Shown: positions 35,932 through 36,775, numbered from the stretch's first letter. The stretch: DNA of 40,203 nt from a virus (UHGV-1364111); one strand, 5' to 3'. Numbers and translations are program-made. The notes: a model not told the origin generated them from the letters alone.

Positions 35932-36008
35932 TTACCGTTGGGGTAATAATTATCCTTATGTGGTTTGAAGTCAATAGGTATGATTATAAAAAATTACCCA
36001 AAAGGTAA
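35932..36008. promoter_or_regulatory. predicted OL: two TTACC-N5-GGTAA operators
   Basis: GTGTTACC gttgg GGTAATAAT (35932-35946) and the perfect 19-bp palindrome AATTACC caaaa GGTAATT (35992-36010). Confidence 0.45.
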
Positions 36009-36020
36009 TTATTGGGGCAA

Positions 36021-36045
36021 TAAAAAAGCCGCTCAATGGCGGCTT
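36021..36045 (-). terminator. rho-independent terminator downstream of the repressor gene
   Basis: Minus-strand AAGCCGC-cauuga-GCGGCUU followed by UUUUA. Separates the cI transcript from the pL region. Confidence 0.6.
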
Positions 36046-36065
36046 AGTGTCTGAAATATATGGTT

Positions 36066-36656
36066 TTACTCTTGCGTTTTACCGTTCTGAACTATCACAA
36101 AATCGACGTAGCTCTCAATCTTGCTTTTCTCACTCTCAGGTAACAATGCGTAGCGGGCCCGGTCGTAATGGATGGTCGCCGGGTCGCGGGGATGGATGAG
36201 CAGCTCATAGCCGCGACGCCCGAAGGCGCTGGCGATCGCCTCCAGGGTGGAGATAGAAACGCTAACCTCATTGTTCAGCATGCGCTGGATTGTAGCCTGG
36301 GCAACCCCGGACGCTTTCGACACCTTTCCCTGAGATGACAGGTCGCGGTTATTCTGCATCCACGCTTCGAGATTATGCGCCGCCAGCTGGCCAATGTCGG
36401 AAGGAGTGATATCCTCCTGGGGAATGGCAACAGCAGATAATGAGTGGTCGACGTCCAGCCAGTTCGACGGCTTGTTTGCTGCCTTCTCAATCTTGCGCGC
36501 CACCGTGTCGCCAACAACCTTCTGCCCGCGGGCCCAGCGGTTCACCAGGTTTGCCTGAGTTCCCAGTTTTTCCGCCAGACGAGTCTGCACCCCGTTGAAG
36601 TCACGGTCGATGATATCGTTAATATTCTGCCTGCGGATATCCTGAATACTTTTCAT
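36066..36656 (-). CDS. CI-like prophage repressor with tandem XRE-type HTH domains and no S24 peptidase domain
   Basis: 196 aa. HTH 1 VQTRLAEKLGTQANLVNRWARGQ. Second HTH-like KASGVAQATIQRMLNNE. C-terminus lacks the Ser-Lys dyad. Divergent from a cro-like gene. Confidence 0.6.
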   Translation of the reverse strand: MKSIQDIRRQNINDIIDRDFNGVQTRLAEKLGTQANLVNRWARGQKVVGDTVARKIEKAANKPSNWLDVDHSLSAVAIPQEDITPSDIGQLAAHNLEAWMQNNRDLSSQGKVSKASGVAQATIQRMLNNEVSVSISTLEAIASAFGRRGYELLIHPRDPATIHYDRARYALLPESEKSKIESYVDFVIVQNGKTQE

Positions 36657-36712
36657 GCTCTGGTGAATCGCCTCATATATGAATTAGTTAGTGGTTCAAT
36701 TAAAAGCGAATT

Positions 36713-36775
36713 TACCCTACAGGTAAATGCACCTCACGGGTAACAAACCTTGATTTTTATTACCTTCTGGGTGAA
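36713..36775. promoter_or_regulatory. predicted OR: operators between the repressor and cro-like genes
   Basis: Perfect ATTTACC ctaca GGTAAAT (36711-36729). TTACC-ttctg-GGTGA (36761-36775). Weaker GCACC-tcacg-GGTAA (36730-36744). Confidence 0.45.

Follow-up and report, generated by a model that had tools for sequence, protein, structure and literature searches.

The palindrome TTACC-N5-GGTAA, which recurs throughout the 40,203-bp stretch of phage DNA analysed in this work (hereafter the window), most probably constitutes the operator of an SPC32H-type prophage repressor, Rep, predicted to be encoded at 36066-36656; we put the probability of this reading at roughly 85%. The window phage is an epsilon15/phiV10-like podophage of the genus Uetakevirus. 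Among database records it is closest to Enterobacter phage BUCT554 (95.6% identical across the immunity region), which points to Enterobacter or a relative as the probable host genus. The underlying type of switch, in which Rep is paired with a LexA-controlled anti-repressor, Ant, has already been solved structurally (Rep and Ant of Salmonella phage SPC32H; PDB 5D50 and 5D4Z; Kim and Ryu 2013; Kim et al. 2016), and the window phage is a further member of this group.

Pattern search of the window yielded eight exact copies of TTACC-N5-GGTAA, compared with 0.01 expected from dinucleotide shuffles. When up to one mismatch was allowed, the number of copies increased to 12 (0.48 expected). In addition, palindromes were counted de novo without prior assumption by considering every combination of a 5-mer, a spacer of 0 to 10 nucleotides and the reverse complement. 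TTACC-N5 ranked first among all palindromes of the window with its eight copies, and the next best had three. An origin by chance similarity of AT-rich intergenic DNA, for which nothing but the AT-rich flanks can be adduced, was rejected because none of 100 shuffles (mean, 0.01) reached at least eight matches, and because sites occupy fixed positions in all of 76 relatives. Including degenerate copies, there are about 13 sites in total; they fall into non-coding DNA and precede almost all transcription units.

The immunity region contains the following elements (palindromes are listed without strand).

35932-35946: OL proximal operator, TTACCGTTGGGGTAA, covering the -10/+1 region of candidate PL; its centre is 62 bp from that of the distal operator
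35946-35974, minus strand: candidate leftward early promoter PL, TTGACT-17-AATTAT (9/12 in a consensus scan)
35992-36010: distal operator of OL, a perfect palindrome of 19 bp (AATTACCcaaaaGGTAATT) with its core at 35994-36008
36026-36045, minus strand: intrinsic terminator of rep, a GC hairpin followed by a T-tract
36066-36656, minus strand: rep, 196-aa prophage repressor with an N-terminal HTH, a middle HTH_3-like domain and a C-terminal tail
36710-36728: OR site a, nearest to rep, perfect 19-bp palindrome ATTTACCctacaGGTAAAT, core at 36712-36726
36729-36743: OR site b, degenerate GCACCTCACGGGTAA with two mismatches, 17 bp from site a
36750-36779, plus strand: candidate promoter PR, predicted to drive the Cro-like gene, TTGATT-18-AATATT (8/12 in our own scan)
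36760-36774: OR site c, TTACCTTCTGGGTGA with one mismatch, filling the spacer of candidate PR
36811-37041, plus strand: gene for a Cro-like 76-aa HTH protein that heads the rightward operon (phrog_35 'transcriptional repressor', E 2.7e-10)

This arrangement agrees with the original prediction, which had placed OL just beyond the rep terminator and OR between rep and the Cro-like gene, and had quoted two perfect 19-mers; both were found, at 35992-36010 and 36710-36728. The announced two good copies at OL (both with exact cores) and two to three copies at OR (one exact, one with a single mismatch, one with two) are likewise present. The motif is, however, dispersed over the genome, and the two regions named in that prediction capture only three of the eight exact and five of the about 13 total sites.

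On both sides of the repressor gene, promoter-like hexamers are overlapped by palindromes. Candidate PL sits between the two OL operators such that its -10 element abuts the proximal operator while the -35 element is closely preceded by the distal operator. OR site a overlaps a TTTACC-17-TTTAAT match, spotted by eye, which is a possible rep promoter. PL and PR are candidate promoters whose positions we infer from consensus scans. The leftward early operon to the left of OL comprises small ORFs, an exonuclease gene and the gene for RecT. The equivalent of OR site b is exact in phages SPC32H, epsilon15 and BUCT711. At the position of OR site c, SPC32H and epsilon15 also carry one mismatch, but it affects the other half-site (TCACC).

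Outside OL and OR, exact sites start at positions 3236, 6767, 23377, 39607 and 39669, and sites with one mismatch at positions 3256, 28485 and 30645.

3236-3270: two sites 20 bp apart (3236-3250, exact; 3256-3270, one mismatch), immediately upstream of the small terminase gene
6767-6781: one exact site ahead of the gp3/portal operon; its counterpart in epsilon15 (2931-2947) carries a repressor-binding annotation
23377-23391: single exact site in the ant/tailspike intergenic region; the epsilon15 equivalent (19895-19911) is annotated as repressor-binding
28485-28499: site with one mismatch between a gtrA-like gene and the lysis cassette; the epsilon15 equivalent is exact
30645-30659: site ahead of the integrase gene with one mismatch (GGTAT), which recurs in all five genomes compared
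39607-39683: second dual-operator cassette, ahead of a RuvC-like gene, its two exact sites (39607-39621 and 39669-39683) being spaced by 62 bp

The pair at the terminase gene is syntenic in BUCT554, SPC32H, phiV10 and epsilon15, where positions 12-27 of the last-named genome are annotated as repressor-binding. Promoter matches at most of the dispersed sites are weak (8/12) or missing altogether. Placement with respect to genes was assessed in BUCT554, an annotated relative with the same site layout. All eight exact sites and five of six one-mismatch sites of this phage fall wholly into non-coding DNA, which makes up 6.7% of its genome (coding, 93.3%).

The flanks of the integrase site (tgacggta...act) are nearly identical among the five genomes compared, and its counterpart in epsilon15 falls among annotated Int-binding and RNase III features. 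This site may serve as an operator that is weak by design, or belong to the attP/int control region. Judged by position relative to BUCT554 genes, the minus-strand region 25694-28463 corresponds to an O-antigen conversion cassette (GtrA, glycosyltransferase, glucosyltransferase), and region 5574-6147, also on the minus strand, to a pair of small genes of the N4 gp49 / Sf6 gp66 family.

The cassette ahead of the RuvC-like resolvase gene (39687-40151) aligns without gaps over 136 bp with the reverse complement of the OL cassette. Common to both are a T-tract, the two operators and a CTATTGA -35 element. The spacing of the operator pair is 62 bp at both cassettes in the five genomes compared, except for 63 bp at OL of BUCT711. 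The RuvC cassette operators flank a weak promoter-like sequence, TTGATT-18-TAAATT, which was found in a relaxed scan (8/12), whereas a strict promoter and terminator scan of this cassette found nothing. Transcription from the predicted promoter would leave almost no leader RNA. In epsilon15, the equivalent of this cassette (35906-35922) is annotated as repressor-binding. As 62 bp correspond to about six helical turns, the palindromes of each pair are expected to lie on one face of the DNA, an arrangement that would fit a Rep tetramer bridging both sites with its two pairs of DNA-binding domains.

The rep product matched chain A of PDB entry 5D50 ('Repressor') over its full length (residues 1-192; E 6e-48) in a phmmer search of the PDB, and is 46% identical to SPC32H Rep over 195 aa (BLASTP). 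Pfam matches of Rep were confined to HTH families (HTH_3 and a YdaS-like HTH), and no peptidase S24 cleavage domain was detected by Pfam at E values up to 0.1. The earlier description of the protein as a tandem-HTH repressor unlike that of lambda thus holds with respect to its two HTH-type domains and the missing S24 domain, but the protein belongs to a known family, being a homolog of SPC32H Rep. A secondary account (PMC9638917) describes SPC32H Rep as a tetramer that binds palindromic sites, each palindrome being read by domains from different dimers, and states that the Rep-DNA complex is dismantled by the tetrameric anti-repressor Ant. According to a second such account (PMC9986798), DNA binding is the task of the N-terminal domain of Rep, dimerisation that of the middle domain, and tetramerisation and Ant binding that of the C-terminal domain; the same source notes that how this protein represses has not been characterised extensively. 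The term 'tandem HTH' is therefore right at the level of the fold, with DNA binding assigned to the N-terminal domain in the account of PMC9986798.

The DNA-binding domain is the best-conserved part of Rep; the middle and C-terminal domains are 40-44% identical to those of SPC32H Rep. Residues 36-41 (N-L-V-N-R-W), which are taken to be the recognition helix, are invariant in seven Reps with identities ranging from 45 to 98%. A pairwise comparison detected no similarity of the Cro-like protein to the DNA-binding domain of Rep. In the early-right operon, the Cro-like gene is followed by a 68-aa ORF (37189-37395) and a 444-aa ORF (37392-38726). The N-terminus of the latter resembles a nucleotide-binding loop of the PAPS-reductase type (SAGKDST), and BUCT554 carries primosomal and replication genes at this position.

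The second component of the predicted switch was found between the tail genes and the tailspike gene, as in SPC32H.

23040-23300, minus strand: ant, 86-aa anti-repressor, 80% identical to SPC32H Ant
23322-23337: LexA box CTGTATATATGTACAG in the putative ant promoter region, 21 bp upstream of the ant start

Ant matched chain E of PDB entry 5D50 ('Anti-repressor protein') with an E value of 2.6e-44. A LexA box is present at the same place in BUCT554, SPC32H, phiV10 and epsilon15. A second LexA-box-like palindrome (CTGTTTAAATGTACAG, 2846-2861) was noticed a short way upstream of ORF 2884-3213. This ORF, with no other gene between it and the terminase gene, matches phrog_3469 'UmuD-like protein' and is apparently the counterpart of epsilon15 gp49. 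This box is present in the window phage and BUCT554 only and absent from SPC32H, phiV10 and epsilon15; it may place a second gene under SOS control.

Among relatives, BUCT554, SPC32H, phiV10 and epsilon15 contain 8 to 11 copies of the motif each, and sites are syntenic in these four phages and in BUCT711, at corresponding positions where contexts were listed. When palindromes were counted de novo, TTACC-N5 came out on top in seven related phage and prophage sequences from five host genera; the sequences in which it ranked first include Klebsiella phage BUCT711, a Serratia prophage and another prophage, whose Reps are 47-63% identical to that of the window phage. The resulting consensus is (A/T)(A)TTACC-N5-GGTAA(T)(A/T), in which the half-site columns are invariant while the flanks vary and the AT-rich spacer does so freely. 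In all 76 distinct IMG/VR immunity regions, an exact site precedes the rep start by 60-69 bp and another follows the rep stop at a distance of 60-69 bp; 73 of the 76 carry one more site 120-129 bp beyond the stop. When 49 distinct OR regions were aligned, the half-sites and a TTGAT -35-like element were the invariant columns, and the palindromes are the best-conserved intergenic columns across relatives. The original prediction had named loss of the motif from homologous immunity regions as a finding that would speak against it; the motif was retained in 76 of 76 regions with a homologous rep.

Rep relatives combining an altered helix with an altered palindrome were also sought, and all Rep relatives found still use TTACC-N5-GGTAA. 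The most divergent Reps are those from Serratia (56% identity, with NLISRW and a 5-residue insertion) and from Klebsiella, epsilon15 and SPC32H (45-47%). The same half-site together with the putative DNA-reading helix was thus observed in Rep relatives down to 45% identity in five genera (in Serratia, the helix reads NLISRW). Taken at face value, the sequences imply that the whole phage group would share one immunity specificity, which is unusual compared with lambdoid phages.

Neither the motif nor its assignment is new, given the annotation of epsilon15 and the three perfect OL and two perfect OR copies of SPC32H. The GenBank record of epsilon15 (AY150271 / NC_004775) lists seven such palindromes as protein_bind features with the note 'repressor / lysogeny', which are predictions and not footprints (Kropinski et al. 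2007 record). These are located ahead of terS and gp3, in the gap between gp19 and the tailspike gene, at OL (three sites) and ahead of the RuvC-like gene. The core motif and the dispersed layout are identical to those of the window phage, and gp19 is an Ant homolog. The copies at OR (33341 and 33358) and ahead of the lysis genes (24704) are left unannotated in that record, though present. Literature searches for operator descriptions in Uetakeviruses gave nothing more specific.

The likeness to SPC32H comprises a full-length Rep homolog, an Ant homolog, the LexA box at ant and the placement of ant. It extends to the palindromes themselves, which are the same, occupy the same dispersed positions and are spaced by 62 bp at OL and by 17 and 30-31 bp at OR. 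The two phages differ in that SPC32H has three exact sites at OL and two at OR, whereas the exact sites of the window phage number two at OL and a single one at OR, where the middle site is degenerate. With regard to the anti-repressor, the abstract by Kim and Ryu from 2013 is said to describe Ant as structurally distinct from the Gifsy/Fels anti-repressors. The Gifsy/Fels prophages resemble the system described here in possessing a non-cleavable repressor that is inactivated by a small, LexA-controlled anti-repressor (Lemire et al. 2011, PMC3121763).

The comparison with lambda had to be revised. Operators flanking the repressor gene, several sites per region, divergent promoters and palindromes centred on a base pair are shared with the lambda CI system. 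By contrast, Rep is devoid of the S24 autocleavage domain, and lambda is devoid of dispersed sites. The claim that the ACC-N5-GGT spacing is that of lambda operators proved wrong: the annotated lambda operators OL1, OL3 and OR1 have ACC-N6-GGT, N5 does not occur in any of them, and ACC...GGT is not present at all in OL2, OR2 and OR3. In sum, the proposal that the palindromes are operators is strengthened by promoter overlap, conservation and the epsilon15 annotation, but had been made with an incorrect lambda spacing and had missed both the dispersed sites and the repressor family. A parallel in logic is phage P1, whose C1 repressor acts on many operators ahead of separate transcription units, and where an anti-repressor modulates induction and immunity. 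P1 differs in that its prophage is a plasmid, its operators are asymmetric 17-mers and C1 is unrelated in sequence to Rep. The resemblance is one of logic only, as the operators in the window are symmetric and Rep best matches HTH_3/XRE-type proteins.

If the palindromes are Rep operators, the two N-terminal HTH domains of a Rep tetramer that read one palindrome would contact half-sites whose centres are 10 bp apart. At OR, Rep bound to sites b and c would sit on and just upstream of the rightward promoter and, at site a, over the likely rep promoter. At OL, the two operators 62 bp (about six helical turns) apart would bracket the leftward promoter. Through the sites that precede the terminase, portal, ant/tailspike, lysis, integrase and RuvC-like units, Rep would silence most transcription units directly. 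Induction would not require repressor cleavage: DNA damage would take LexA off the ant promoter, and Ant would then bind the C-terminal region of Rep, which would be released from the DNA. Motif, enrichment, placement, conservation and the homology between Rep/Ant and the proteins crystallised together were computed in this work; binding, promoter positions, looping and the effect at the dispersed sites are inferred from them.

A regulator other than Rep might also read the palindromes. The most plausible candidate is the Cro-like protein (36811-37041), an HTH protein annotated as a transcriptional repressor and encoded at the classical cro position; Rep would then recognise some other sequence. 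In lambdoid switches, Cro and CI share operators. Since the motif never varies among the relatives found, no pair of altered helix and altered half-site ties it to Rep rather than to the Cro-like protein, and comparison among genomes does not tell the two proteins apart, since each accompanies the motif in every case. Rep is nevertheless the protein described as palindrome-binding in the secondary literature (PMC9638917), and its putative recognition helix is invariant like the half-site, a match that we count in favour of Rep as the reader. Moreover, a Cro-only reading would leave Rep without a target, as the next enriched palindrome occurs only three times. We therefore consider it improbable that the palindromes are chiefly targets of the Cro-like protein or another phage regulator. 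Use by both Rep and the Cro-like protein is likely, exclusive use by the Cro-like protein is not. A conserved host transcription factor exploited by the phage would account for the identity of the motif in phages of Salmonella, Escherichia, Enterobacter, Klebsiella and Serratia, enterobacteria which share many regulators. Yet the motif tracks a phage-encoded repressor with an invariant DNA-reading helix, and its sites bracket the immunity gene in the manner of operators. To our knowledge, no enterobacterial regulator has a TTACC-N5-GGTAA consensus, and we regard this explanation as very unlikely.

Equally little probability is given to a function of the dispersed copies at the RNA level, i.e., as small hairpins, RNase III sites or parts of terminators. 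Region 35920-35947 was flagged as hairpin-like by a terminator scan, and RNase III sites are annotated near some copies in the epsilon15 record. However, the stems would consist of only 5-7 AT-rich pairs, and the sites are located ahead of genes on both strands. In more than 40 sites the arms are invariant base for base with no compensatory changes, and such invariance without covariation fits base-specific contact by a protein and not a structure. A search of the whole window against Rfam returned no family.

Within the preferred reading, i.e., the palindromes as operators of Rep, a more far-reaching proposal is that Rep acts as a genome-wide silencer on a fixed geometry, with two paralogous 62-bp cassettes that are clamped or looped, about nine further sites and a frozen specificity. 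We advance it tentatively and think it rather doubtful in its entirety. One Rep tetramer with its two pairs of DNA-binding domains could clamp or loop the promoter between operators 62 bp apart, and the remaining sites, approximately nine in number, would serve to shut down the late, lysis, integrase and ant/tailspike units directly. Lambdoid immunity regions diversify freely. In the present group, operator and helix would be frozen over five enterobacterial genera because a change of specificity would need concerted changes at a dozen sites.

For annotation, the analysis provides a full immunity map of the phage consisting of Rep, about 13 predicted operators, Ant and the LexA box. The occurrence of one operator specificity in all known relatives predicts cross-immunity among epsilon15-like phages, which would span phages of Salmonella, E. 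coli, Enterobacter, Klebsiella and Serratia. These gains are modest as the switch has already been solved structurally. The only points that might repay experiments are the 62-bp dual-operator cassettes and the specificity frozen across five host genera; the conserved operator pairs offer a simple system to ask whether a Rep tetramer bridges two sites.

Finally, region 37098-37165, which separates the terminator of the Cro-like gene from the following ORF, contains isolated half-sites (GGTAATAAT near 37106 and TTACC near 37157). The equivalent region of BUCT554 (locus L001, 21689) contains a full site with one mismatch.
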